Shown here piece after piece: positions 7,753 through 32,218 of a DNA stretch of 64,000 nt. The position numbers and the translations under genes are program-made. Numbering within the stretch: position 1 is the first letter of the stretch; each line of letters opens with the position of its first letter. The notes beneath the pieces were generated by a model, which did no database searches, was not told the DNA's origin, and saw only the letters and a list, made by a program, of their open reading frames with translations. This DNA is from Escherichia phage p000v: sequence record NC_055781.1. One strand, given 5' to 3'.

Positions 7753-9566
7753 AAATTGAAAAAGAAATTGAAGGATTAATTTATAAAACTAATAAAGATC
7801 TTTTGAACGAGAATGCTAATAAAGATTCTCGTGTTTTTCCAACTCAACGGGACCTTATGGCTGGTATTGTGTCTAAGCACATTGCCAAAAATATGGTCCC
7901 GTCTTTTATTATGAATGCGCATGAAAGTGGAATTATCCACATGCATGATATTGATTATTCTCCTGCTCTTCCGTTTACTAATTGTTGTTTAGTCGATTTA
8001 AAGGGGATGCTTGAGAACGGATTTAAATTAGGCAATGCTCAAATTGAAACGCCTAAATCGATTGGTGTTGCTACTGCAATTATGGCACAAATTACTGCAC
8101 AAGTTGCTTCACATCAGTATGGCGGAACTACATTTGCAAATGTCGATAAAGTTCTTTCTCCTTATGTTAAACGTACATACGCTAAACATGTTGAAGATGC
8201 AGAAAAATGGCAAATCGCTGATGCGTTGAATTATGCTCAATCTAAAACAGAAAAAGACGTATACGATGCATTCCAAGCTTATGAATATGAAGTAAATACT
8301 CTCTTTAGTTCAAACGGACAAACGCCTTTTGTAACAATTACATTTGGTACGGGAACCGATTGGACTGAACGAATGATTCAGAAGGCAATTCTGAAAAATC
8401 GGATTAAAGGTCTTGGTCGTGATGGGATAACTCCTATTTTTCCTAAACTTGTTATGTTTGTTGAAGAAGGTGTTAATCTTTATAAAGATGATCCAAACTA
8501 TGATATTAAACAACTTGCGTTAGAATGTGCAAGCAAAAGAATGTATCCTGACATTATTTCGGTTAAGAATAATAAAGCTATTACCGGTTCTTCAGTTCCT
8601 GTTTCTCCAATGGGTTGCCGTAGTTTCTTGAGCGTATGGAAAGATTCAACTGGAAATGAAATTCTTGACGGTCGTAATAATCTCGGTGTTGTAACACTGA
8701 ATCTTCCTCGCATCGCATTAGATTCTTATATTGGAACACAGTTCAATGAACAGAAATTTGTTGAATTATTCAATGAACGAATGGATTTATGTTTTGAAGC
8801 TTTGATGTGTAGAATTAGTTCCTTAAAAGGAGTTAAAGCGACTGTTGCTCCTATTCTTTACCAAGAAGGTGCATTCGGGGTTCGTCTTAAACCTGATGAC
8901 GATATAATTGAGTTATTTAAAAACGGTAGAAGTTCAGTGTCTTTAGGATACATCGGTATTCATGAATTGAATATTCTTGTTGGTCGTGATATTGGACAAG
9001 AAATTTTAACTAAAATGAATGCTCATCTTAAACAGTGGACTGAAAGAACTGGTTTTGCTTTTAGTTTGTATTCTACTCCTGCTGAAAACCTTTGTTATCG
9101 CTTCTGTAAACTCGATACAGAAAAATATGGAAGTGTAAAAGATGTTACCGATAAAGGCTGGTACACTAACAGTTTCCACGTTTCAGTAGAAGAAAATATT
9201 ACTCCGTTTGAAAAGATTTCTCGTGAAGCGCCATATCATTTCATTGCGACAGGTGGTCACATTTCTTATGTTGAACTTCCAGATATGAAAAACAATTTAA
9301 AGGGACTTGAGGCCGTCTGGGATTATGCTGCACAACATTTAGATTATTTTGGTGTTAATATGCCAGTGGATAAATGTTTTACATGTGGAAGTACCCATGA
9401 AATGACTCCTACTGAAAACGGATTTGTTTGTTCAGTTTGCGGAGAAACTGATCCTAAAAAGATGAACACCATAAGAAGAACATGCGGTTATTTGGGAAAT
9501 CCGAACGAACGCGGATTTAATCTCGGTAAAAATAAAGAAATCATGCATAGGGTTAAACACCAATGA
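7749..9566 (+). CDS. nrdD: anaerobic ribonucleoside-triphosphate reductase NrdD
   Basis: 605 aa; C-terminal glycyl-radical motif RRTCGYLG and Cys cluster; uninterrupted reading frame. Confidence 0.92.
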   Translation: MKIEKEIEGLIYKTNKDLLNENANKDSRVFPTQRDLMAGIVSKHIAKNMVPSFIMNAHESGIIHMHDIDYSPALPFTNCCLVDLKGMLENGFKLGNAQIETPKSIGVATAIMAQITAQVASHQYGGTTFANVDKVLSPYVKRTYAKHVEDAEKWQIADALNYAQSKTEKDVYDAFQAYEYEVNTLFSSNGQTPFVTITFGTGTDWTERMIQKAILKNRIKGLGRDGITPIFPKLVMFVEEGVNLYKDDPNYDIKQLALECASKRMYPDIISVKNNKAITGSSVPVSPMGCRSFLSVWKDSTGNEILDGRNNLGVVTLNLPRIALDSYIGTQFNEQKFVELFNERMDLCFEALMCRISSLKGVKATVAPILYQEGAFGVRLKPDDDIIELFKNGRSSVSLGYIGIHELNILVGRDIGQEILTKMNAHLKQWTERTGFAFSLYSTPAENLCYRFCKLDTEKYGSVKDVTDKGWYTNSFHVSVEENITPFEKISREAPYHFIATGGHISYVELPDMKNNLKGLEAVWDYAAQHLDYFGVNMPVDKCFTCGSTHEMTPTENGFVCSVCGETDPKKMNTIRRTCGYLGNPNERGFNLGKNKEIMHRVKHQ

Positions 9567-10033
9567 ATTATGATAGATTTTATCCTTGCGATTTTGTGAA
9601 TGGCCCGGGATGCAGGGTCGTTCTTTTCGTTACGGGTTGTTTGCATAAATGCGAAGGGTGTTATAATAAATCAACATGGAATGCTAGAAATGGTATTCCA
9701 TTCACTGGTGAAACACTAGAACAATTAATTGAATGTTTGAATAATGATTATATAGAAGGATTAACTATAACCGGAGGTGACCCTCTCTATCCTGATAACC
9801 GAGATGTTATTCATTGCATTGCTCAAACAGTAAAAAATCTTTATCCCAATAAAAGCATTTGGTTGTGGACAGGATATAAGTTTGAAGATATTAAACAACT
9901 AGAAATGCTTAAATATGTTGATGTTATTATTGATGGGAAGTATGAGAAAAATCTTCCGACTAAAAAGCTGTGGCGAGGATCAGATAATCAGCGACTTTGG
10001 TCAAATACCGATGGGGTGTGGAAACATGATTAA
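9563..10033 (+). CDS. nrdG: anaerobic RNR activating enzyme NrdG (radical SAM)
   Basis: 156 aa; CLHKCEGCYN radical-SAM-type Cys motif; coupled to nrdD (ATGA overlap). Confidence 0.9.
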   Translation: MNYDRFYPCDFVNGPGCRVVLFVTGCLHKCEGCYNKSTWNARNGIPFTGETLEQLIECLNNDYIEGLTITGGDPLYPDNRDVIHCIAQTVKNLYPNKSIWLWTGYKFEDIKQLEMLKYVDVIIDGKYEKNLPTKKLWRGSDNQRLWSNTDGVWKHD

Positions 10034-10143
10034 ATTGAATTACATTATGGATACTATAAATGATATGATTTTTCGTTTTGGTCCAGAATTTTATTCGCAA
10101 TATAGTTTAATGATTATCAATGCTTAGTTAATTAAGGGTAAAT

Positions 10144-10359
10144 ATGTACAAATTTCGTAAAGGTTTAGCTGATTTTCTTACAACTGTAACGTTCTTTTTG
10201 TTTATGGCAGTTGGAGCTATTTTTCTTATTCCTTTTACTGGTGTATTTTTCGTGATTAGTTTAATTTCTCCAGAAAAGGGTTTATCCTCCAGCGAATTCA
10301 ATGAACGTTTGGACAAAATTACTAATAAACTGAATTCTGTTCTTGATAAAAAGGCTTAA
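10144..10359 (+). CDS. small membrane protein
   Basis: ORF track; hydrophobic core. Confidence 0.45.
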   Translation: MYKFRKGLADFLTTVTFFLFMAVGAIFLIPFTGVFFVISLISPEKGLSSSEFNERLDKITNKLNSVLDKKA

Positions 10360-10361
10360 TT

Positions 10362-10679
10362 ATGATTAGTTTTGAGCGGTATGTAGTAGAGAGTTGGAAT
10401 GGTTTTGATATGTTCGGTAATGACTATTATTTCTATGAATGTAGTCTGAACCCAAGCTTCTGGGCTGGACGTGAACAAGACCTCGAAGAAATCAACGCTC
10501 GTGCCGATTTGTTAGGTGAACTGCCTACGGTTTATTTTACCTTTGATGAATCCGGCTTCGTTATCCAGGTTTATTTTCCTGAAGAAAACTCTGGTGAGGA
10601 TTCTGTTAATCCTCCTTATTGGGCTTACCAAGGAATTATTTCTCGTGGAACAAAACTCGAACTTAAAGAACAAGATTGA
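10362..10679 (+). CDS. hypothetical protein
   Basis: ORF track 105 aa. Confidence 0.5.
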   Translation: MISFERYVVESWNGFDMFGNDYYFYECSLNPSFWAGREQDLEEINARADLLGELPTVYFTFDESGFVIQVYFPEENSGEDSVNPPYWAYQGIISRGTKLELKEQD

Positions 10680-10968
10680 AATTTATGGCATCCCTGAAGA
10701 AGTTGGACGTTGTCCAGGATGTTATACTGTTACAAAACTTTTAAAGGAGCTCAATGCTCCTTATACATTTTATAAAGTCCTCACTAATAATGGTAAGATT
10801 GAATATGACCGTCCTTTAATCGTATCTCTTGCTAAACGTGCAGGATTCACTTCACTTAATATTCGTTATCCTGTCATATTTTTAAATGATAAGAAACAAA
10901 AGAATATTGCAGAGTTTAAAAAGTCCTTGATTTCATTAGGATATGACTCTGATATCATAGAAGATTGA
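10645..10968 (+). CDS. glutaredoxin/NrdH-like redoxin (CPGC motif); start uncertain, GTG at 10645 proposed
   Basis: IEIYGIPEEVGRCPGCY thioredoxin-fold motif; no in-frame ATG near the domain start; GTG preceded by AGGA. Confidence 0.5.
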   Translation: MEQNSNLKNKIEIYGIPEEVGRCPGCYTVTKLLKELNAPYTFYKVLTNNGKIEYDRPLIVSLAKRAGFTSLNIRYPVIFLNDKKQKNIAEFKKSLISLGYDSDIIED

Positions 10969-21643: not shown

Positions 21644-24355
21644 ATGAAAGAATTTTACTTAACGGTTGAACAGATTGGTGATTCAATTTTTGAACGTTAC
21701 ATCGATTCTAATGGCCGTGAACGTACTCGTGAAGTAGAATATAAACCATCACTGTTTGCTCATTGTCCGGAAAGTCAGGCTACGAAATATTTTGATATCT
21801 ACGGTAAGCCGTGTACTCGTAAACTATTCGCTAACATGCGTGATGCGTCTCAATGGATTAAACGCATGGAAGATATCGGACTTGAAGCACTTGGCATGGA
21901 CGATTTCAAATTAGCGTATTTGTCTGACACTTATAACTATGAAATCAAATACGACCATACAAAAATTCGTGTGGCTAACTTCGACATCGAAGTAACATCT
22001 CCGGATGGGTTCCCTGAGCCGTCACAAGCAAAACATCCTATTGATGCTATCACCCATTATGACTCAATTGACGACAGGTTCTACGTATTTGATCTATTGA
22101 ATTCTCCATATGGTAATGTAGAAGAATGGTCTATTGAAATCGCTGCTAAGCTTCAAGAACAAGGTGGTGATGAAGTTCCATCTGAAATTATCGATAAAAT
22201 CATTTATATGCCGTTCGATAACGAAAAAGAATTGTTGATGGAATATCTCAACTTCTGGCAACAGAAAACTCCTGTCATTTTGACTGGATGGAACGTTGAG
22301 TCATTTGATATTCCATATGTGTATAACAGAATCAAGAATATTTTTGGCGAATCTACTGCGAAACGTTTATCACCACATCGTAAAACTCGTGTTAAAGTTA
22401 TCGAAAACATGTATGGTTCTCGTGAAATCATTACATTGTTCGGTATCTCTGTTCTTGATTACATTGACCTTTACAAAAAATTCTCTTTTACCAATCAACC
22501 GTCGTATTCTCTGGATTACATTTCAGAATTTGAATTGAACGTTGGTAAACTGAAATATGACGGCCCTATTTCTAAGCTTCGTGAAAGCAATCACCAACGA
22601 TATATTTCTTATAACATCATCGACGTGTATCGTGTATTGCAAATTGATGCTAAGCGCCAGTTCATCAACTTGAGTTTGGACATGGGTTATTATGCTAAGA
22701 TACAGATTCAATCTGTGTTCAGCCCAATTAAAACATGGGATGCTATTATTTTTAATAGCCTTAAAGAGCAGAACAAGGTGATTCCACAAGGTCGTTCTCA
22801 CCCGGTTCAACCTTATCCTGGCGCTTTTGTTAAGGAACCTATTCCAAATCGATACAAATATGTAATGAGTTTCGACCTTACATCTCTGTATCCAAGTATT
22901 ATTCGCCAAGTGAATATTAGCCCAGAAACAATAGCAGGAACGTTTAAAGTAGCTCCATTGCATGATTATATTAACGCAATCGCTGAACGTCCTTCAGATG
23001 TGTACAGCTGCTCTCCTAATGGCATGATGTATTATAAAGACCGTGATGGTGTAGTTCCAACTGAAATCACTAAGGTCTTTAATCAACGTAAAGAACATAA
23101 AGGTTACATGCTTGCAGCTCAACGTAATGGTGAAATAATTAAAGAGGCATTGCATAATCCTAATCTTTCTGTTGACGAACCATTAGATGTTGATTATCGT
23201 TTCGACTTCACTGATGAGATTAAAGAAAAGATTAAAAAGTTGTCTGCTAAATCTCTTAATGAAATGTTGTTCAGAGCTCAACGTACTGAAGTTGCAGGTA
23301 TGACTGCACAAATTAACCGTAAATTGCTTATCAACTCACTTTATGGTGCACTTGGAAACGTTTGGTTCCGTTATTACGATTTGCGTAATGCAACTGCAAT
23401 CACAACATTTGGTCAAATGGCTTTACAGTGGATTGAACGTAAAGTTAATGAATATCTGAATGAAGTTTGTGGTACAGAAGGTGAAGCTTTCGTTCTTTAT
23501 GGTGATACAGACTCTATTTACGTATCTGCAGATAAAATTATTGATAAGGTTGGTGAATCTAAATTCCGTGATACCAACCATTGGGTGGACTTTTTAGATA
23601 AGTTTGCACGTGAACGTATGGAACCGGCTATTGATAGAGGTTTCCGTGAAATGTGTGAATACATGAACAATAAACAACACTTAATGTTCATGGACCGAGA
23701 AGCTATCGCTGGTCCTCCGCTCGGTTCTAAAGGTATTGGTGGATTCTGGACTGGTAAGAAACGTTATGCATTAAACGTGTGGGATATGGAAGGTACTCGT
23801 TACGCTGAGCCTAAACTCAAAATCATGGGTCTAGAGACTCAGAAATCTTCGACCCCTAAAGCAGTACAGAAAGCTCTTAAAGAATGTATTCGTCGTATGC
23901 TTCAAGAAGGTGAAGAATCATTACAAGAATATTTTAAAGAGTTTGAAAAAGAATTCCGTCAATTGAATTATATTAGCATCGCGTCGGTATCTTCTGCGAA
24001 TAACATTGCTAAATATGACGTTGGTGGATTCCCTGGTCCTAAATGCCCGTTCCATATTCGTGGAATTCTGACATATAACAGAGCTATCAAAGGTAATATT
24101 GATGCTCCACAAGTTGTAGAAGGCGAAAAGGTATACGTTCTGCCTTTACGTGATGGAAACCCGTTCGGTGATAAATGTATCGCATGGCCTTCTGGTACTG
24201 AAATCACAGATTTAATTAAAGACGACGTACTTCATTGGATGGACTACACTGTTCTCCTTGAGAAGACATTTATTAAACCACTTGAAGGATTCACATCAGC
24301 AGCGAAACTCGATTACGAGAAGAAAGCATCTCTGTTCGATATGTTCGATTTTTGA
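21644..24355 (+). CDS. 43: DNA polymerase gp43 (family B)
   Basis: 903 aa; exo motifs FDIE, polymerase motifs DLTSLYPSII and YGDTDS; N-terminus MKEFYLTVEQIGDSIFERYIDSNGRERTRE matches my recollection of RB69 gp43. Confidence 0.97.
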   Translation: MKEFYLTVEQIGDSIFERYIDSNGRERTREVEYKPSLFAHCPESQATKYFDIYGKPCTRKLFANMRDASQWIKRMEDIGLEALGMDDFKLAYLSDTYNYEIKYDHTKIRVANFDIEVTSPDGFPEPSQAKHPIDAITHYDSIDDRFYVFDLLNSPYGNVEEWSIEIAAKLQEQGGDEVPSEIIDKIIYMPFDNEKELLMEYLNFWQQKTPVILTGWNVESFDIPYVYNRIKNIFGESTAKRLSPHRKTRVKVIENMYGSREIITLFGISVLDYIDLYKKFSFTNQPSYSLDYISEFELNVGKLKYDGPISKLRESNHQRYISYNIIDVYRVLQIDAKRQFINLSLDMGYYAKIQIQSVFSPIKTWDAIIFNSLKEQNKVIPQGRSHPVQPYPGAFVKEPIPNRYKYVMSFDLTSLYPSIIRQVNISPETIAGTFKVAPLHDYINAIAERPSDVYSCSPNGMMYYKDRDGVVPTEITKVFNQRKEHKGYMLAAQRNGEIIKEALHNPNLSVDEPLDVDYRFDFTDEIKEKIKKLSAKSLNEMLFRAQRTEVAGMTAQINRKLLINSLYGALGNVWFRYYDLRNATAITTFGQMALQWIERKVNEYLNEVCGTEGEAFVLYGDTDSIYVSADKIIDKVGESKFRDTNHWVDFLDKFARERMEPAIDRGFREMCEYMNNKQHLMFMDREAIAGPPLGSKGIGGFWTGKKRYALNVWDMEGTRYAEPKLKIMGLETQKSSTPKAVQKALKECIRRMLQEGEESLQEYFKEFEKEFRQLNYISIASVSSANNIAKYDVGGFPGPKCPFHIRGILTYNRAIKGNIDAPQVVEGEKVYVLPLRDGNPFGDKCIAWPSGTEITDLIKDDVLHWMDYTVLLEKTFIKPLEGFTSAAKLDYEKKASLFDMFDF

Positions 24356-24395
24356 TATAATGCCATGGACGGTAAACTAATTAAATGAGAGAAAT

Positions 24396-25031
24396 ATGAA
24401 AACTACACCAATCACTATCGCTATTGACGCAATCGTAAAACAAGCTTCATCTCTTGCCACTATGGCTAAAGTAATTAGTCAAAACTCTGCCCGATATAAT
24501 GCTATTCTTGAAACTCTTCGTCGCCCTGGACTGAGTAATTATGAAAGCCGAGTAATTATTACAGGTGTTGGTAAGAACGCTAATATCGCAACTAAAGCTT
24601 CCGAGACTTTTGCTTCACTAGGTATTCCTAGCATGTATTTGAACACCGGGCATTATTCTCATGGCGACGCAGGATTTATTGCACCTAATGATGTATTAGT
24701 TCACATCAGTCGTTCTGGTAAGACTGAAGAAATGATAGGTGTTGCTAAACATCTTCGTATGATTCGTCCTCAGGTTAAACAGATTCTGTTACATTGTAAC
24801 CCTGACATTCCGCAAGAATACGAAGCTCTTTTTGATTATACGTTCTGTACAGGCATCGCGGTAGAGGTTGATGAGAATTCTCTGGCTCCGACCATGTCCA
24901 CTACATTGTTGTTAGCGCTTATCGATACGTTTGCTATCAACCTTTCGTCTGAACGTGGATTTACCTCTAATGACTTCCTTAAGTTCCACCCTGGTGGTGC
25001 ACTAGGTGCCATGTTACGAGGCGAACAATGA
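24396..25031 (+). CDS. SIS-domain sugar-phosphate isomerase, KdsD/KpsF-like arabinose-5-phosphate isomerase without CBS domains
   Basis: ITGVGKNANIATKASETFASLGIPS, SHGDAGFIAPNDVLVHISRSGKTEE and HPGGALG resemble the API SIS domain. Confidence 0.8.
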   Translation: MKTTPITIAIDAIVKQASSLATMAKVISQNSARYNAILETLRRPGLSNYESRVIITGVGKNANIATKASETFASLGIPSMYLNTGHYSHGDAGFIAPNDVLVHISRSGKTEEMIGVAKHLRMIRPQVKQILLHCNPDIPQEYEALFDYTFCTGIAVEVDENSLAPTMSTTLLLALIDTFAINLSSERGFTSNDFLKFHPGGALGAMLRGEQ

Positions 25032-25171
25032 AAGCAATAACAATAGGACTTTTACTATTGATGCTTGTCATGACTATCTACTGGAGCTTAACGGCTCCAG
25101 TAATGATTCCGACTCTTATAATCGGATGGATTATGATTGGACTACAAGCAAAGTATGAATGCTTTAACTAG
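25028..25171 (+). CDS. small hydrophobic peptide (47 aa, two predicted TM helices)
   Basis: ATGA overlap with upstream stop; below ORF-track size cutoff. Confidence 0.35.
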   Translation: MKAITIGLLLLMLVMTIYWSLTAPVMIPTLIIGWIMIGLQAKYECFN

Positions 25172-25184
25172 AATAGTGTACAAT
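25158..25184 (+). promoter_or_regulatory. candidate middle promoter (MotA box TGCTTTA, -10 TACAAT)
   Basis: TGCTTTA at 25160-25166, 12 nt spacer, TACAAT at 25179-25184. Confidence 0.4.
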
Positions 25185-25212
25185 ACACCTACTTACCAAT
25201 GAGGACTTCAAC

Positions 25213-26898
25213 ATGAAAAAAGCTGTTATTCTTGGTGCTGGACTGGCAACTCGTTTGTATCCAATAACGCACCATATTCCTAAGGTGCTTGTTAACTATA
25301 AACAAGACACTATTCTGAGCAATTTGTATACAATTTATTCTGACCTTGGCGCAGATGAAATTATTGTAGTAGTTCATTCAAAATTTGCTGAAACTGTTCG
25401 AGCTTATTGCGAGCAAGAAGGGTTCAATGTGACTATTCGTACAGTTGATGAAGCGTATGGTTCTGCTTATGCTCTTGCTAAATTATACAAAGATTTAGAT
25501 GGCCATAACGTAATTGTTAACTGGTGTGATATTATTCCTGACTTTGGTTCATGGTCTTGGAATGTTAACGCAATCTATGTTAAGGGTGATGAATGTCGAT
25601 ATAATTTCGATGGTGAAAATATCACTAACGTAGGTTCAACAGGTGGTAATGTTGTAGGAATTTATCAGTTCAAAGACTGGGAATTCTACATGGGTTCTAC
25701 TGATGAGGAAATTCACGAATACTGCAAAGGTCGTGATTTCGTAGAATTCCTTTACGGCAGTGCATTCAATAAATCAGAGCTTATGAATCTAATTGATTTA
25801 GGTGATATGCCTAAACTTGAAAAGGCTCATGAAGTTCGTGAACTGAATCGTAGTTTTAATGCAGTTGAAATTGGCGAAGAAACTGTAACTAAATTCGCGT
25901 TAACCGAACAAGGTCGAGCTCTTCAAAAAGATGAGATTTCATGGTATTTGAAAGTGAAATCAGATTCAGTTCCTCAGTTAGTTTCGGTAAATGAAAATAA
26001 TTTTGAAATGGAACGTATTAAAGGTAAGCCGGCATTTGAATATATTAAATCCAAATCAAGTCTTGCTCGTCCACAAATTGTTGATGCAATTTTAGATGCA
26101 CTGAAATTCAGCACGGACACTTATTTTGTAAGTCCTGAAACTGTTCGCCGTGATTTCACTAAAGAGTTCTATACGAAAGTTATTGATCGTTGTGAAAGCA
26201 TTCAGCCATTGATTGATTCATTTGGTAAAATCACACGTGTGAACTACACTAAGATTGGACGTCTGAAGCCAATGTTGAAACAAGCTTTAGAACATCTTAT
26301 TCGTTATCATAACCGTTCTCAGGGACAGTACTCTGTTATTCATGGTGACCCGAACTTCAGTAATACTATGATTACCGATAACGGCGAAGTCAAGTTTATC
26401 GACCCTCGTGGATATTTTGGTGAAACCAAGATTTACGGGCCAAAATTGTATGATGAAGCTAAAGTGCTTTATGCTGTTTCAGGTTATGATGAATTCAATG
26501 CTAATCCGACCTGGGGTCAGTTTACTATTGATGAAACAACTTGTAATGTGACTATTAACATCAATCCATTAGTTTACAAATATGGAAAGATGAGTTCGTT
26601 TAACGAGTATCATCATTTGGCAGTAGCAATTATCTGGATTGCATTAGGTGGTTATTTCAAGAATAATCCACTTAAAGCGGTTGCCGCATATTATAAAGGT
26701 ATGGAACTTCTGACTAAGCAATTACGTAACATGGGCCGTGTACTTCAAGACGGCTCTATTAGTTATGACGTAGCAGAACCTGTAACGGCTACTCTGATTA
26801 CAAAAAATCCTGGTAAATGGGTACTAACTGATAAAGAAACTGGTGTTTCCTATCGTCCAATCGGCGGCGATATCACTCATCAATGGGAACGAATCTAA
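25213..26898 (+). CDS. bifunctional sugar-1-phosphate nucleotidyltransferase / APH-like sugar kinase
   Basis: N-terminus ILGAGLATRLYPITHHIPKVLV is an NTP-transferase signature; C-terminal HGDPNFSNTMITDNGEVKFIDPRGYFG is an APH/choline-kinase catalytic motif. Confidence 0.8.
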   Translation: MKKAVILGAGLATRLYPITHHIPKVLVNYKQDTILSNLYTIYSDLGADEIIVVVHSKFAETVRAYCEQEGFNVTIRTVDEAYGSAYALAKLYKDLDGHNVIVNWCDIIPDFGSWSWNVNAIYVKGDECRYNFDGENITNVGSTGGNVVGIYQFKDWEFYMGSTDEEIHEYCKGRDFVEFLYGSAFNKSELMNLIDLGDMPKLEKAHEVRELNRSFNAVEIGEETVTKFALTEQGRALQKDEISWYLKVKSDSVPQLVSVNENNFEMERIKGKPAFEYIKSKSSLARPQIVDAILDALKFSTDTYFVSPETVRRDFTKEFYTKVIDRCESIQPLIDSFGKITRVNYTKIGRLKPMLKQALEHLIRYHNRSQGQYSVIHGDPNFSNTMITDNGEVKFIDPRGYFGETKIYGPKLYDEAKVLYAVSGYDEFNANPTWGQFTIDETTCNVTININPLVYKYGKMSSFNEYHHLAVAIIWIALGGYFKNNPLKAVAAYYKGMELLTKQLRNMGRVLQDGSISYDVAEPVTATLITKNPGKWVLTDKETGVSYRPIGGDITHQWERI

Positions 26899-27284
26899 TG
26901 CACCGTGTAGAAAACATGCTTAATCTTTGTTTTGATGTCGATGATTGTATAACAGAGTGGAATAACAATCGTGATTACGTGAACTTCAAACCAGACGTCG
27001 AAATGGTGTCTGCCATTAATGCCCTGTATGATGCAGGGCATACCATAACGCTTTACACTGCCCGTGGTATGAAGTCGGTAGGTCCTGGTCGTATAGCAAT
27101 TGACATTCTCCCAAGTCTGATTCAGAACTTGGAAAACATTGGTTTGAAGTACCATAATTTGCTAACACATAAACCAGTATATGATTGGATTATCGACGAC
27201 AAAGCTATGCGTCCTGACGAATTCAAAGCTCTTATGAATAAAGGCGAATTCGAAACATTTAAATCATATAAACCAAATCTATAA
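26883..27284 (+). CDS. HAD-superfamily phosphatase (small, capless)
   Basis: Motif I FDVDDCIT, motif II TLYTAR, motif III/IV K..(n)..IIDDKA; alternative ATG at 26898. Confidence 0.7.
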   Translation: MGTNLMHRVENMLNLCFDVDDCITEWNNNRDYVNFKPDVEMVSAINALYDAGHTITLYTARGMKSVGPGRIAIDILPSLIQNLENIGLKYHNLLTHKPVYDWIIDDKAMRPDEFKALMNKGEFETFKSYKPNL

Positions 27285-27341
27285 TAATTTAAGTAAGACC
27301 TGCAAAAACCATCGCATCAATTAACGCGAGATGCAAAAAAA

Positions 27342-28502
27342 ATGAATACTTTTAAAATCGGAACGAATTTTGATTTAGCTCTTCTTGATAAAATCGTAGA
27401 GCTCAATAAAACCTATCCTAATAGCTTGATAAACGAAGTATATGGCTCTACAAGAGAAATGGCTTTTGTAGCAGCCAGACCTGATTTTAGGCTTCCTGAC
27501 GTTGACAAAAAGATGTTAGAAGACTACGTTAAACGTTGTAACGAATTAGGTATTTGCTTTAACTATACACTCAACACGATAAATCCTGGTTCAAAAAGAG
27601 AACTAGTTGAGTGGAAGAAGAAAGCTATTCAGGATTATGTTCAGTATCTTTGGTCAATAGGCGTATGGCGTATTACTATCGCTAACCCTGTTGTTATGGA
27701 AATTGTTCGTGAAGTCAATAAAGATATTGAGATTGAAGTTTCAACAATTCTACATGTCGATGCGGTAACTCAAATCAAATACTTACATGACCAATATAAC
27801 ATCAAAAAGGTCTGTTGCGGAATTCATAAGAACCGTTCAGTTTCTTTCCTGAAGCGTGCAGCAGAGTTTTGCAATAAGAACAATATAATATTTGAAGTTC
27901 TTGTAAATGAGTTCTGTTCTAATGCTGGTAAAGGGTATACAACACATTGTAGTTATCGTGACTCTTGCTATATTTTCCATAGTACTGATGTTACCGCTGA
28001 TGATGCTAAATCCTTAAATGGATATCCTATGCAGCACTGTATTAAAGCTCGTGATACAGACCCATTTAACTGGTTGAGAACTCGTTTTGTTCGTCCTCAA
28101 GATTTGAAACTTTATAATGATATTGGTATCACTCAATTCAAAGTTTCAGGACGTACAGGTAGCACAGACTACATTTTGAAAGTTCTTGAAGCATACGCTT
28201 CTGAAAAGTTTGAAGGTAATTTGTTAGAACTGTGGAAGCCTTTAGAGACTATTTTCACTCTTGAAAATGAGACTGAGTTTTCACATACAGTAAATATTGA
28301 AACCTCTTTGTTAGATGGCTTTTTAGAAAAAAGGTGGTTCAGACATCCAGATTTTGATTGTGCTAATGAAATCTGTGGGTCAACGTGTACATATTGTGAA
28401 AGGTATTATAAACGTCAATTATCTAAAAACGGGTTAGCAGAAAACTCCATATCTATTATTGATATAACTAACTCTGATGACGCTTTGAGGTACCCGGAAT
28501 GA
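27342..28502 (+). CDS. Cys-rich protein of unknown function (possible metal or Fe-S enzyme)
   Basis: 386 aa; Cys clusters CC, C-x10-C-x6-C and C-x4-C-x3-C-x2-C; no recognisable family by eye. Confidence 0.6.
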   Translation: MNTFKIGTNFDLALLDKIVELNKTYPNSLINEVYGSTREMAFVAARPDFRLPDVDKKMLEDYVKRCNELGICFNYTLNTINPGSKRELVEWKKKAIQDYVQYLWSIGVWRITIANPVVMEIVREVNKDIEIEVSTILHVDAVTQIKYLHDQYNIKKVCCGIHKNRSVSFLKRAAEFCNKNNIIFEVLVNEFCSNAGKGYTTHCSYRDSCYIFHSTDVTADDAKSLNGYPMQHCIKARDTDPFNWLRTRFVRPQDLKLYNDIGITQFKVSGRTGSTDYILKVLEAYASEKFEGNLLELWKPLETIFTLENETEFSHTVNIETSLLDGFLEKRWFRHPDFDCANEICGSTCTYCERYYKRQLSKNGLAENSISIIDITNSDDALRYPE

Positions 28503-28738
28503 TTTCTAGAAAAAGTTTTAATTATAAACTTAACGAAGAGATTTTGACTATGAAACTGAACACTAACGAACAAATTCTTAAAAAGGCCCTTATGGGCCTG
28601 TTTGAAACCAAAGCGGCTAAAGTGATTAAAGAACCTGTTCAATTGGAATACTACGCTGATGCATTTCTTCATAGTGTTCTTGGAAGTATCGATGCTGAAG
28701 CTTTACGTTATATCAACATTGTCAAGAAATTCAAATAA
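28499..28738 (+). CDS. hypothetical protein
   Basis: ATGA overlap with upstream stop. Confidence 0.4.
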   Translation: MISRKSFNYKLNEEILTMKLNTNEQILKKALMGLFETKAAKVIKEPVQLEYYADAFLHSVLGSIDAEALRYINIVKKFK

Positions 28739-28761
28739 GCTTTACGAATTGAGTATATAAT
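28738..28761 (+). promoter_or_regulatory. candidate middle promoter (MotA box AGCTTTAC, -10 TATAAT)
   Basis: GCTTTA, 10 nt spacer, TATAAT upstream of gene 42. Confidence 0.4.
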
Positions 28762-28780
28762 AAATTGTATTGAGGTAAAC

Positions 28781-29497
28781 ATGGGAAAACATAACACAAT
28801 GAAATATATCAAAGCCGCAGATTTTCAAACCGCATTTAAAGCAGTCAATCGTGAAATTTTAGAAAACCCGGAATTCGTAACTGATTCTCGTATTGGACGT
28901 TGTAATGAAATTGGGTCTATGACAGTAGTTGTTGACACTCCATCATCATTCAAAATGACCGACCCACGTATTAACCGCATCTCTTATGAATATGCCGAAG
29001 ACTTCTGGAAGTTTATGATTTCTGGTGGTACCAACGCAGAAGAAGCGTTTAAGGCATATCCTAATGTCGCTAAATTTATTTCTAAACCAAAATCAGATGT
29101 TTTGCCGGCGAACTTCAACACTTTCTATGGTCCTCGCATTGCGGCCCAATTACCAACTCTTCTAAAAGAACTTAAAGAGAAGCCTAACTCCCGAAGAGTT
29201 GTGTTCCAAATTCTAGAAAGTTCTGATCAGGCTTTGCTTGATTCGGACGAAACACTTGAATATCCATGTACTGACTCAGTAACTTATTATATTCGTGATG
29301 GTAAGCTTTATACCCACTGTCATATGCGTTCTCAGAACTGTGCTGTTGTTATGCAGTTGGATTTTTATCTCCAAGGAAAATTACTTCATTATATCGCTAA
29401 CGAATGCGGTGTAGAAGTTGGTGATTATACTCATACCATGGTAAGTGCCCATGTGTTTGAACGTGATTTTGATTATGTTAAAGGATTCCTTGACTAA
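28781..29497 (+). CDS. 42: thymidylate-synthase-fold pyrimidine hydroxymethylase (dCMP hydroxymethylase gp42)
   Basis: TS-like motifs NSRRVV, catalytic Cys in EYPCTDS, HMRSQN; synteny with T4 gene 42. Confidence 0.75.
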   Translation: MGKHNTMKYIKAADFQTAFKAVNREILENPEFVTDSRIGRCNEIGSMTVVVDTPSSFKMTDPRINRISYEYAEDFWKFMISGGTNAEEAFKAYPNVAKFISKPKSDVLPANFNTFYGPRIAAQLPTLLKELKEKPNSRRVVFQILESSDQALLDSDETLEYPCTDSVTYYIRDGKLYTHCHMRSQNCAVVMQLDFYLQGKLLHYIANECGVEVGDYTHTMVSAHVFERDFDYVKGFLD

Positions 29498-30396
29498 TGG
29501 CTATTTTCCGCGTACCAATCTTGAGTATGCGGTCTTATGAAACTGGACAGTATGCTATCCTTAAGGATGGCAACTTCCAACTTCATTTGCACCGTGCTAA
29601 TCCGGGTGATGTGATTACATATCCACGTAATGCATCTGATATTAAAGAATGCGAACGTCTTTTCCCAGAATTTAAGTTTGTTCCATTATGGTATAAAGAT
29701 AACGCGTATAACACTCGTAAATATTTCTGGACTGAAAATGAATTTGTGGTTGATTCATTAATTGATTATTATGATTGTGATTTTCTAATCACAGATATCA
29801 CTGGTTATGGTGGCGCTTTTGATGTGGAATTCAATTTCAATATCACTGCAGACCCTAATAAACCACGTTTTTATATTGATGAATTCTTAAAAACCGACAT
29901 GTTGTCTGTTAATCGTTCACTTCAAACTACTGTGTTGAATGAACGTCAAAAAGAAGTGCTGGTTAACGCAGGTGCAGATGGTAATAAGATTATCGTAACG
30001 CAGAAAGTTATACGTCCTTCCATCATGCAGCGTCTTGTAGGTGATTTGGCTCCTATTCATCTAGATGGTATTTTTCATCCATTTCGAATTAGTGACCCAT
30101 GTTATCGTTTTGAACAAGTGGTTGAATGTGCAATTCAATTAGGTCAACCGCTTTATATAACCGATCCAAATAATAGCTTCGACAGAAATAAGTATCCTGA
30201 AGAAGCGCTGATTCGAATTTTTAAACCAACTAAAACTGAGTACTATCAAATTCTTAAAGGACGTCCGAAAATTCAATATTTCGAAAATCCTGAAGAAGTA
30301 TTCCATCCAGGTCTTGGTGAGTTCATCTACTTTAATGCTTTAATTTCTTCGCCGTATAATATACCTAAATACGAAGATGTCGTAATCGAGGAATAA
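29497..30396 (+). CDS. hypothetical protein occupying the T4 b-gt position
   Basis: 299 aa; coupled start TAATG; no recognisable motif. Confidence 0.55.
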   Translation: MAIFRVPILSMRSYETGQYAILKDGNFQLHLHRANPGDVITYPRNASDIKECERLFPEFKFVPLWYKDNAYNTRKYFWTENEFVVDSLIDYYDCDFLITDITGYGGAFDVEFNFNITADPNKPRFYIDEFLKTDMLSVNRSLQTTVLNERQKEVLVNAGADGNKIIVTQKVIRPSIMQRLVGDLAPIHLDGIFHPFRISDPCYRFEQVVECAIQLGQPLYITDPNNSFDRNKYPEEALIRIFKPTKTEYYQILKGRPKIQYFENPEEVFHPGLGEFIYFNALISSPYNIPKYEDVVIEE

Positions 30397-30397
30397 A

Positions 30398-30946
30398 ATG
30401 GCTAAAATTATTTTAGTAGATGGCCCGGATAATGCCGGTAAAACAACTTTCATTAATGACATAATGGAAATTAGTGAAAGATATGTAAAGATTGATTTCC
30501 CTAAACGAACAGTTGATGGACGTTTCGATGTTAAGTCTCGAAATGAAGTTGGCTGTTTCGAAACGATGTTGAATTATTTAGACCCTACTAAGATTTATCT
30601 GTTAGACCGTGGATATATTAGTAACTGGGTTTATGGACGTATTCGACAAGATGCGGACTCGATTCTTGACGTTTATGAACAGGACTATGTTCGTCTTTGC
30701 CAAAACCATGATGTGTTCACAATTATTTTAACACGTAACGAAATGACTGAAAGTTTTGAAGACGACCTTATTACTTTGTCTTCATTCGGTTTTAATACAG
30801 TCATTTCACATTTTGAAGAGTTTGCAATTCATAACAAAATCCAAACATATCAATTACTTAATCATGATGGTGCTAACAAAGTTATAGGATTTAATGCAAG
30901 CGAACGTAATGGTTTGATTACAGAAATCATCAAATGGGCTCGTTAA
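30398..30946 (+). CDS. P-loop kinase-like protein
   Basis: Walker A GPDNAGKTT and LLDRGY motif reminiscent of nucleoside/nucleotide kinases. Confidence 0.55.
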   Translation: MAKIILVDGPDNAGKTTFINDIMEISERYVKIDFPKRTVDGRFDVKSRNEVGCFETMLNYLDPTKIYLLDRGYISNWVYGRIRQDADSILDVYEQDYVRLCQNHDVFTIILTRNEMTESFEDDLITLSSFGFNTVISHFEEFAIHNKIQTYQLLNHDGANKVIGFNASERNGLITEIIKWAR

Positions 30947-31045
30947 GAGCCTGTTTAAAGTTTTAAATGCTGTATAACCCTTAGTATATAATCGTTTTAT
31001 CTTTTAAACATGAGTAAAATATAATGATGCCTATGGAAAAATACA

Positions 31046-32218
31046 ATGTCTGATTTAAAATCTCGTCTGATTAAAGCTTCTACTTCTAAAATGACTGCAG
31101 ACTTGACTAAGTCTAAGCTGTTTAATAATCGTGATGAAGTCCCTACTCGTATTCCGATGTTGAATATTGCACTAGGTGGTGCTCTGAATGCAGGATTGCA
31201 ATCAGGCTTGACTATTTTTGCTGCACCTTCTAAACACTTTAAAACGCTGTTTGGACTAACTATGGTTGCAGCGTATATGAAGAAATATAAAGATGCAATC
31301 TGTTTGTTCTATGACTCAGAATTTGGTGCTTCAGAATCTTATTTTCGTTCAATGGGTGTTGATTTAGACCGTGTAGTTCATACACCAATTCAGTCCGTCG
31401 AACAACTTAAAGTTGATATGACTAATCAGCTTGACGCGATTGAACGCGGTGATAAAGTTATTATCTTTATCGATTCAATCGGTAATACTGCATCTAAGAA
31501 AGAAACCGAAGATGCATTGAATGAGAAAGTCGTAGGTGATATGTCTCGTGCTAAGGCACTTAAATCTCTGTTCCGTATTGTGACCCCGTATCTGACTATT
31601 AAAGATATTCCGTGTGTTGCAATCAACCATACAGCAATGGAAATCGGCGGACTATATCCTAAAGAGATTATGGGTGGTGGTACAGGTATTCTTTATTCTG
31701 CCAACACGGTATTTTTTATCTCTAAACGTCAGGTTAAAGAAGGTACAGAATTGACCGGTTATGACTTCACGTTGAAAGCAGAAAAATCTCGTACAGTTAA
31801 AGAGAAATCTACTTTCCCGATCACGGTTAATTTCGATGGTGGTATCGACCCATTCAGTGGCTTGCTAGAAATGGCAACTGAAATCGGTTTTGTGGTTAAG
31901 CCTAAAGCTGGTTGGTATGCTCGTGAATTCCTTGACGAAGAAACAGGTGAAATGATTCGTGAAGAAAAATCATGGCGTGCTAAAGCTACTGATTGTGTAG
32001 AATTCTGGGGACCTTTGTTTAAACACAAACCTTTCCGTGATGCGATTGAAATGAAATATAAGCTAGGCGCTATCTCGTCTATTAAAGAAGTTGATGACGC
32101 TGTTAACGACCTTATTAATTGCAAAGCAACAACTAAAGTTCCGGTTAAAGCTTCTGATGCTCCGTCTGCAGCAGATATAGAAAACGACCTTGACGAAATG
32201 GAAGATTTCGATGAATAA
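31046..32218 (+). CDS. uvsX: RecA-like recombinase UvsX
   Basis: MSDLKSRLIKASTSK...GPSKHFKT...KSWRAKATDCVEFWGPLFKH matches recalled T4 UvsX. Confidence 0.95.
   Translation: MSDLKSRLIKASTSKMTADLTKSKLFNNRDEVPTRIPMLNIALGGALNAGLQSGLTIFAAPSKHFKTLFGLTMVAAYMKKYKDAICLFYDSEFGASESYFRSMGVDLDRVVHTPIQSVEQLKVDMTNQLDAIERGDKVIIFIDSIGNTASKKETEDALNEKVVGDMSRAKALKSLFRIVTPYLTIKDIPCVAINHTAMEIGGLYPKEIMGGGTGILYSANTVFFISKRQVKEGTELTGYDFTLKAEKSRTVKEKSTFPITVNFDGGIDPFSGLLEMATEIGFVVKPKAGWYAREFLDEETGEMIREEKSWRAKATDCVEFWGPLFKHKPFRDAIEMKYKLGAISSIKEVDDAVNDLINCKATTKVPVKASDAPSAADIENDLDEMEDFDE

Follow-up and report, generated by a model that had tools for sequence, protein, structure and literature searches.

A Nucleotidyltransferase–Kinase Fusion Protein of Escherichia Phage p000v as a Probable Bifunctional Enzyme of UDP-D-Arabinofuranose Synthesis

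Introduction

A gene on the plus strand of Escherichia phage p000v (sequence record NC_055781.1), at positions 25213–26898 of a 64,000-nucleotide (nt) stretch that is referred to below as the window, joins a sugar nucleotidyltransferase domain and a kinase domain in one polypeptide. Which sugar does such a protein activate, and in what order do its two domains act? Our answer is that the gene very probably encodes a bifunctional enzyme that makes uridine diphosphate (UDP)-D-arabinofuranose for the arabinosylation of 5-hydroxycytosine in the phage DNA; the product we propose is a putative D-arabinose-5-phosphate 1-kinase combined with a UDP-D-arabinofuranose pyrophosphorylase. The enzyme would supply the activated sugar for arabinosylated 5-hydroxycytosine, a modification that protects RB69-like phages against restriction and alters their sensitivity to other defence systems.

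The fusion gene is an already described two-domain enzyme and not a new one. It was recognised in 2018, and in 2026 the pathway was modelled for phage RB69 and a homolog was reportedly assayed. The additions made here are modest: both folds were confirmed independently, the architecture was found to be widespread and old, a parallel to the HldE/GmhB heptose pathway was drawn, and four-domain single chains were detected outside bacteriophages. The folds, the intact catalytic residues, the near-identity to RB69 gp52:53, the conserved neighbourhood and the domain fusions were obtained in this work, while the substrates, the step order and the use of uridine triphosphate (UTP) come second-hand from the literature on the homologous proteins AfhE and AfhF of HY126.

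Identity of the Fusion Gene

The gene is one open reading frame (ORF) of 561 amino acids (aa) with an ATG start, and the antisense strand of the same interval holds stop codons throughout. Its features are as follows.

25201–25205, plus strand: ribosome-binding site GAGGA, 7 nt 5' of the ATG of the fusion gene, read from the sequence.
25213–26898, plus strand: fusion enzyme gene, ortholog of RB69 ORF53_52c (gp52:53) and counterpart of HY126 AfhE, assigned from the phrog_4098 match, the RB69 identity and the literature.
25213–25827, plus strand: sugar-1-phosphate nucleotidyltransferase domain (aa 1–205), with a G-x-G-x-x-R...PK loop (G10, R14, K24) and the acidic residues D106, D195 and D198.
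25840–26733, plus strand: kinase domain of the choline-kinase/APH fold (eukaryotic-like; aa 210–507), with K227, E241, the catalytic loop H377-G-D379-x4-N384 and D397 of the IDPRG motif.
26734–26895, plus strand: 54-aa C-terminal tail (aa 508–561) of short strands, modelled at a predicted local distance difference test (pLDDT) score of 82–91.

The phrog_4098 profile matches the protein with an E-value of 6e-294 and covers both domains, aa 1–561 aligning with profile positions 1–559 of 559. In the RB69 record the same sequence is split in two, ORF053c being 100% identical to aa 1–218 of the window protein and ORF052c 99.4% identical to aa 219–561. At the DNA level the fusion genes of the two phages are 97.5% identical and differ in length by one single-base gap. 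The missing base goes back to an error of sequencing in the RB69 GenBank record: the region was re-sequenced by Thomas et al. in 2018, who defined and expressed the single 561-residue ORF53_52c and put it forward, together with the SIS protein ORF055c, for UDP-arabinose synthesis (PMC6024577). The ortholog in phage Bas46 is annotated as a "putative enzyme involved in UDP-arabinose biosynthesis". RB69 ORF53_52c is thus essentially the same 561-aa protein with few amino-acid differences, and its gene has the same location, with the DNA polymerase gene on one side and that of the ThyA homolog on the other, among the same neighbours. Over the 4.6-kb region around the gene, identity is 99.7% with Escherichia phage FP43 and 95% or more with about 150 further records; the window belongs to an RB69-like T-even phage (Mosigvirus).

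Folds and Catalytic Residues

The earlier note, made from the sequence, had described a fusion of an RmlA-like nucleotidyltransferase to an APH-fold kinase and had suggested structure prediction with fold comparison as a check. The fusion is real, with the ORF boundaries exact and the motifs in place: GAGLATRL at aa 8, PK at aa 23–24, HGDPNFSN at aa 377–384 and IDPRG at aa 396–400. An AlphaFold2 model, based on a family alignment of 43 sequences reaching down to 29% identity, has a mean pLDDT of 93.9 and a predicted template modelling (pTM) score of 0.91, and both folds are confirmed in it. The N-terminal domain adopts an alpha/beta fold of the RmlA type, in which acidic residues that would bind metal and phosphate are conserved, and its structural matches are LicC, RmlA, MurU and HddC. 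Those of the C-terminal domain are choline kinase, APH, glucosamine kinase and maltokinase, and its bilobal kinase fold contains the HxDxxxxN loop together with the beta3 Lys, the alphaC Glu and the Asp of a DFG-like motif. The division into two domains stands, with one correction to the earlier description, the transferase occupying about 205 and not 250 residues; the kinase extends over about aa 210–507.

Conservation across the family alignment is far beyond chance. G10, R14, K24, D106, D195 and D198 of the transferase domain are invariant, as are K227 (on the strand 224–229), E241 (on the helix 232–247), G378, D379, N384 and D397 of the kinase domain; H377 is kept in 42 of the 43 sequences. 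Because the catalytic residues are invariant, both domains of the modelled protein look catalytically competent. The C-terminal tail is a more restricted element. It is present in the 24 closest of the aligned sequences, which share at least 37% identity and come mostly from T4-like phages, and is absent or nearly so in the 19 more distant ones.

Sequence profiles alone describe the two halves unequally. Pfam NTP_transferase (PF00483) covers aa 3–99 above threshold (38.4 bits; cut-off 21.2), and the NCBIfam models gave only partial N-terminal matches to sugar-1-phosphate nucleotidyltransferases, far under their equivalog cut-offs. Around aa 350–405 there are sub-threshold Pfam matches to kinase families (Fructosamin_kin, EcKL, RIO1, APH and ABC1). 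Searches of the PDB with the single sequence and with the family profile returned no solved structure of the fusion family; they detected the N-terminal domain, the best match of the profile being the heptose-1-phosphate guanylyltransferase HddC (1.3e-13), and for the kinase only RIO2 at an E-value of 0.08.

Published Pathway and Proposed Mechanism

Lee et al. (NAR 2026; PMC13326640) report that the DNA of RB69 carries mono- and poly-arabinosylated 5-hydroxycytosine and not arabinosyl-hydroxymethylcytosine, and that RB69 gp55, gp52:53 and gp51 can take ribulose-5-phosphate to nucleoside diphosphate (NDP)-arabinofuranose, with an NDP-sugar pyrophosphorylase as the N-terminal and a kinase as the C-terminal domain of gp52:53. 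They also relay the work of He et al. (Nat Chem Biol 2026) on HY126, where, in their summary, AfhE is a D-arabinose-5-phosphate kinase yielding arabinose-1,5-bisphosphate and a UDP-D-arabinose pyrophosphorylase, and the analogue of gp51, AfhF, is a HAD phosphatase that depends on Mg and forms arabinose-1-phosphate (PMC13326640).

Applied to the window protein, this scheme would run as follows. The KdsD-like isomerase encoded upstream, or the host KdsD/GutQ, would convert ribulose-5-phosphate to D-arabinose-5-phosphate. The C-terminal domain of the APH/choline-kinase fold, using adenosine triphosphate (ATP), would then phosphorylate the anomeric C1 hydroxyl to give arabinofuranose-1,5-bisphosphate, from which the downstream HAD phosphatase would take off the 5-phosphate. 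The resulting arabinofuranose-1-phosphate would return to the N-terminal nucleotidyltransferase domain and react with UTP to UDP-arabinofuranose and pyrophosphate, and the adjoining glycosyltransferase or glycosyltransferases would place the arabinose on 5-hydroxycytosine in DNA. A start from a 5-phosphosugar would probably lock the ring in the furanose form, which may be why a kinase–phosphatase detour is used in place of a free-sugar kinase or a mutase.

Some further support comes from Shewanella phage Thanatos, whose protein TH1_060 is 54% identical to the window protein. It is needed for phage propagation, and with xylose-1-phosphate and any nucleoside triphosphate no NDP-xylose product was reported for it (PMC12838424).

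Neighbouring Genes

The HAD phosphatase, the isomerase, the ThyA homolog and the glycosyltransferase candidate are all present in the window in the RB69 order.

24396–25031, plus strand: SIS-domain arabinose-5-phosphate isomerase, KdsD/GutQ-like, 211 aa, without CBS domains (RB69 gp55); Pfam SIS 9.6e-10.
25028–25171, between the isomerase and the fusion gene: 47-codon ORF for a very hydrophobic peptide, MKAITIGLLLLMLVMTIYWSLTAPVMIPTLIIGWIMIGLQAKYECFN, its ATG overlapping the isomerase stop codon.
26883–27284, plus strand: HAD-family phosphatase, 133 aa (RB69 gp51, AfhF counterpart), with the motifs FDVDDCIT, TARG and IIDDK.
27342–28502, plus strand: U32 "peptidase"-family protein (RB69 gp50), inside the module; Pfam Peptidase_U32 7.3e-11 and a weak UbiU match (E-value 8.9e-4).
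28781–29497, plus strand: thymidylate-synthase homolog (RB69 gp48); Pfam Thymidylat_synt 1.9e-15 and RB69 synteny.
29497–30396, plus strand: 299-aa protein (RB69 gp46:47), putative first DNA arabinosyltransferase using UDP-arabinose, assigned from RB69 synteny and PMC13326640.

The SIS protein also matches the NCBIfam models KpsF/GutQ (8.5e-32) and KdsD (3.4e-30), and judging from these matches and from PMC13326640 it is the putative source of D-arabinose-5-phosphate from ribulose-5-phosphate. The HAD gene starts within the last 16 nt of the fusion gene, which the two genes share, and the HAD product matches TIGR01689, the EcbF-BcbF capsule biosynthesis phosphatases, at 1.9e-13; we propose that it removes the 5-phosphate of arabinose-1,5-bisphosphate. 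In relatives the counterpart of the small hydrophobic ORF is labelled hypothetical, and the RB69 annotation describes it as "similar to T4 42-imm intercistronic region".

The U32 protein, which is 89% identical in Klebsiella phage Marfa, belongs to a family that takes in the oxygen-independent hydroxylases UbiU, RlhA and TrhP, and instead of a protease it might be an alternative enzyme for the C5 hydroxylation of cytosine, possibly one that works anaerobically. In the published account RB69 gp50 is tabulated only as a "sugar or heterocycle reductase", and the ThyA homolog gp48 is reported to be a flavin-dependent 5-hydroxydeoxycytidine monophosphate (5-hydroxy-dCMP) synthase that makes the acceptor base (PMC13326640). 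The 299-aa protein had no match in a Pfam scan and has counterparts of 46–69% identity in Marfa, JS10 and AM101; as in RB69, it is followed by a protein resembling deoxythymidine monophosphate kinase. A scan of positions 24300–31100 for promoters and terminators gave fewer promoter-like sites than shuffled sequences and nothing usable.

Distribution and Conserved Linkage

A single-chain fusion of this kind had been thought unusual for a phage. By tblastn the fusion protein was found in 375 phage records, full-length in 362 of them, and a profile search of 1.84 billion cluster representatives (clusters at 50% identity) retrieved 569 proteins at an E-value of at most 1e-30, so the architecture is not unusual; besides, the RB69 case had been described in 2018. 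Among the best 150 of the 569, nearly all align with both domains without a break, and in about 25 the N-terminus is extended by HAD and/or SIS domains. Stand-alone relatives of the kinase domain occur as well (phrog_21938; Enterococcus phage TJE4). These findings point to a two-domain architecture that is both widespread and ancient.

The partners of the fusion are kept over considerable distances. In Acinetobacter phage AM101 (57% identity) the isomerase, fusion, HAD phosphatase, ThyA homolog and glycosyltransferase are all present, and a 350-kb jumbo-phage contig (35% identity) has the SIS protein, a GT2 glycosyltransferase, the fusion, the HAD phosphatase and the ThyA homolog. Klebsiella phage Marfa and the Dhakavirus Escherichia phage JS10, whose fusion proteins are 42–44% identical to that of the window, keep the HAD phosphatase, the ThyA homolog and the glycosyltransferase, and no phage SIS isomerase was found within 7 kb of the fusion; their arabinose-5-phosphate is presumably provided by the host KdsD/GutQ. 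The lack of a nearby isomerase together with retention of the phosphatase fits the entry of the pathway from host arabinose-5-phosphate.

In Synechococcus phage S-SRM01 the genes of a SIS protein, a 508-aa fusion and a HAD protein annotated as "3' phosphatase" are consecutive (locus L007, 6411–8823). This module lies within a large island that encodes glycosyltransferases and nucleotide-sugar epimerases, with no ThyA homolog nearby, and its NDP-arabinose may serve a glycan rather than DNA. The homolog in Vibrio phage D482 is shorter (435 aa) and has unrelated neighbours, NAMPT and radical-SAM genes, among which BLAST detected no SIS or HAD gene.

Single Chains with Additional Domains

Seven chains of about 900 aa (P0087, P0088, P0089, P0093, P0095, P0106 and P0091) join HAD, SIS, nucleotidyltransferase and APH-like kinase domains, and by their domain content they would represent the whole route from ribulose-5-phosphate to NDP-arabinose on one polypeptide. 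P0087 is encoded at 8001–10781 of locus L002 on contig JACCDH010973257.1 (GCA_013558355.1), among genes for MutS-HNH, RNA polymerase Rpb2, RNA_pol_N and an autophagy-related protein; this setting resembles that of a giant virus (Nucleocytoviricota). The origin of P0091 is a transcriptome of Ceratiomyxa fruticulosa. Other architectures in the family (P0109 and P0112, 786–788 aa; P0118, 892 aa) include a nucleotidyltransferase and kinase followed by a C-terminal cupin resembling mannose-6-phosphate isomerase, and a HAD domain followed by a nucleoside 2-deoxyribosyltransferase-like domain, the nucleotidyltransferase and the kinase.

The four-domain chains suggest that the fusion protein, the HAD phosphatase and the isomerase might form a single assembly in which arabinose-1,5-bisphosphate and arabinose-1-phosphate pass between active sites. 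In the giant-virus-like contigs and in the cyanophage island, the module might also provide NDP-D-arabinofuranose for glycans and not for DNA. We offer this only tentatively and consider it rather less probable than the contrary. If true, it would mean that the pathway reaches well beyond DNA hypermodification.

Alternative Readings of the Fusion

Several points weigh against the assignment to UDP-D-arabinofuranose synthesis. The C-terminal part of the protein stays under the Pfam thresholds, APH reaching 14.2 bits where 23.2 would be needed. The structural model does not disclose the specificity for sugar or nucleotide, and the invariant basic residues of the kinase domain (R213, R326, R399, K417 and K488) are candidates only for a 5-phosphate pocket. 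The enzymatic activities are second-hand, being relayed by PMC13326640 for the homologs AfhE and AfhF of HY126 and not for the window protein, and the kinship of AfhE with the latter rests on the word "analogous" in that paper. Moreover, Table 1 of PMC13326640 contradicts the text of the same paper. In the table gp51 "dephosphorylates Araf5p to Ara", and the entry for the C-terminal domain of gp52:53 reads "phosphorylates Ara to Araf1p", which makes a route through the free sugar, whereas the text leads from arabinose-5-phosphate through arabinose-1,5-bisphosphate to arabinose-1-phosphate.

The free-sugar route is close to what the earlier note had supposed, namely that the kinase acts on C1 of free D- or L-arabinose in a salvage reaction and that its product goes straight to the fused nucleotidyltransferase; the kinase would then resemble AmgK, NahK or the arabinokinase/fucokinase-pyrophosphorylase fusions. 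This now appears improbable. E. coli catabolises L-arabinose and not D-arabinose, and no pool of free D-arabinose is on offer to the phage. The route is further disfavoured because it needs neither the isomerase nor the phosphatase, both of which are conserved partners of the fusion. The order of steps in the table (isomerase, phosphatase, kinase) would free a sugar whose equilibrium lies mainly on the side of the pyranose, whereas the reported product is a furanose. The single chains of HAD, SIS, nucleotidyltransferase and kinase also argue against salvage of the AmgK/MurU type, yet they fit both step orders and do not discriminate between these. Finally, the text of PMC13326640, citing the AfhE/AfhF experiments, has the kinase act on D-arabinose-5-phosphate, in agreement with the isomerase and HAD context. 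Since the literature on AfhE/AfhF, as relayed there, and the context data agree, both free-pentose salvage and direct channelling are unlikely; channelling from kinase to transferase is not borne out, since the two domains would catalyse non-consecutive steps with a separate phosphatase acting between them. The role in NDP-pentose synthesis that had been predicted for the phage protein is upheld, with arabinose as the pentose, and the nucleotide, which had been held to be unreadable from the sequence, is reported in PMC13326640 as UDP for the homolog AfhE.

Channelling would become feasible if the nucleotidyltransferase acted on arabinose-1,5-bisphosphate itself, giving UDP-arabinose-5-phosphate from which the HAD phosphatase removes the 5-phosphate last. 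The fused steps would then be consecutive, which is the commoner logic of such fusions, and the two domains are indeed packed against each other confidently in the model, as its pTM score indicates. We nevertheless give this order of events slightly less credence than the free-sugar route, that is, very little. In the heptose pathway, the closest logical analogue, dephosphorylation precedes nucleotidyl transfer, GmhB acting before the HldE adenylyltransferase or HddC. According to the account of AfhF in PMC13326640, arabinose-1,5-bisphosphate is likewise converted to arabinose-1-phosphate before activation.

A third reading, a LicA/LicC-like fusion for a non-sugar alcohol, for example a choline kinase with a CTP:phosphocholine cytidylyltransferase making cytidine diphosphate (CDP)-choline or a related head group, was rejected on gene context and is highly implausible, given that the module holds an arabinose-5-phosphate isomerase, a 5-hydroxy-dCMP synthase and DNA glycosyltransferases, that the best PDB match of the family profile is the sugar-phosphate enzyme HddC, and that RB69 DNA bears arabinose and not choline (PMC13326640, PMC6024577).

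Comparison with Known Systems

The bifunctional UDP-D-arabinofuranose enzyme proposed here has its nearest functional reference in AfhE of HY126, which in the description given by PMC13326640 has the same architecture, with the nucleotidyltransferase N-terminal and the kinase C-terminal, and the same kind of partners (AfhF and an arabinose-5-phosphate isomerase). The activity was reported for AfhE and is inferred for the window protein.

At the level of folds, the comparison with bacterial pairs of an anomeric kinase gene and a nucleotidyltransferase gene, which the earlier note had made, is a fair one. AmgK-MurU, an anomeric MurNAc/GlcNAc kinase with a MurNAc-1-phosphate uridylyltransferase, and LicA-LicC, a choline kinase with a phosphocholine cytidylyltransferase, combine the same pair of folds, a kinase of the APH/choline-kinase fold and a minimal RmlA-like nucleotidyltransferase, and MurU, LicC and LicA rank near the top when the window protein domains are matched by structure. 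These systems differ from the phage module in being encoded by separate genes, in using unphosphorylated substrates and in carrying out consecutive steps with no phosphatase, whereas the substrate in the phage module is reportedly a 5-phosphosugar and a HAD phosphatase acts in between.

Fusion of a sugar-1-kinase to an NDP-sugar pyrophosphorylase in a single chain is also found in Bacteroides FKP and in the arabino/fucokinase-pyrophosphorylase AFKP80 of Leishmania, the Leishmania enzyme making an NDP-D-arabinose. These proteins have a kinase of the GHMP fold, use guanosine triphosphate and serve salvage by activating free sugars in the pyranose form; none of the searches made brought up a relationship between them and the window protein.

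The closest parallel in logic is the nucleotide-heptose pathway, which has the same four steps: an isomerase, an anomeric kinase giving a bisphosphate, a HAD phosphatase and a nucleotidyltransferase. They are carried out there by the SIS isomerase GmhA, the kinase HldE or HddA, the HAD phosphatase GmhB and the nucleotidyltransferase HldE-C or HddC, and HldE fuses the kinase to the nucleotidyltransferase in spite of their non-consecutive steps, as the window protein does. The parts, however, are different. The kinase is ribokinase-like in HldE, of the GHMP type in HddA and of the APH/choline-kinase fold in the window protein; the transferase is a cytidylyltransferase fold in HldE and RmlA-like in the window protein; and the sugar is a heptose in the HldE pathway and a pentofuranose in the phage module. 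The window protein is an analogue of HldE, and neither a homologue nor a member of that family.

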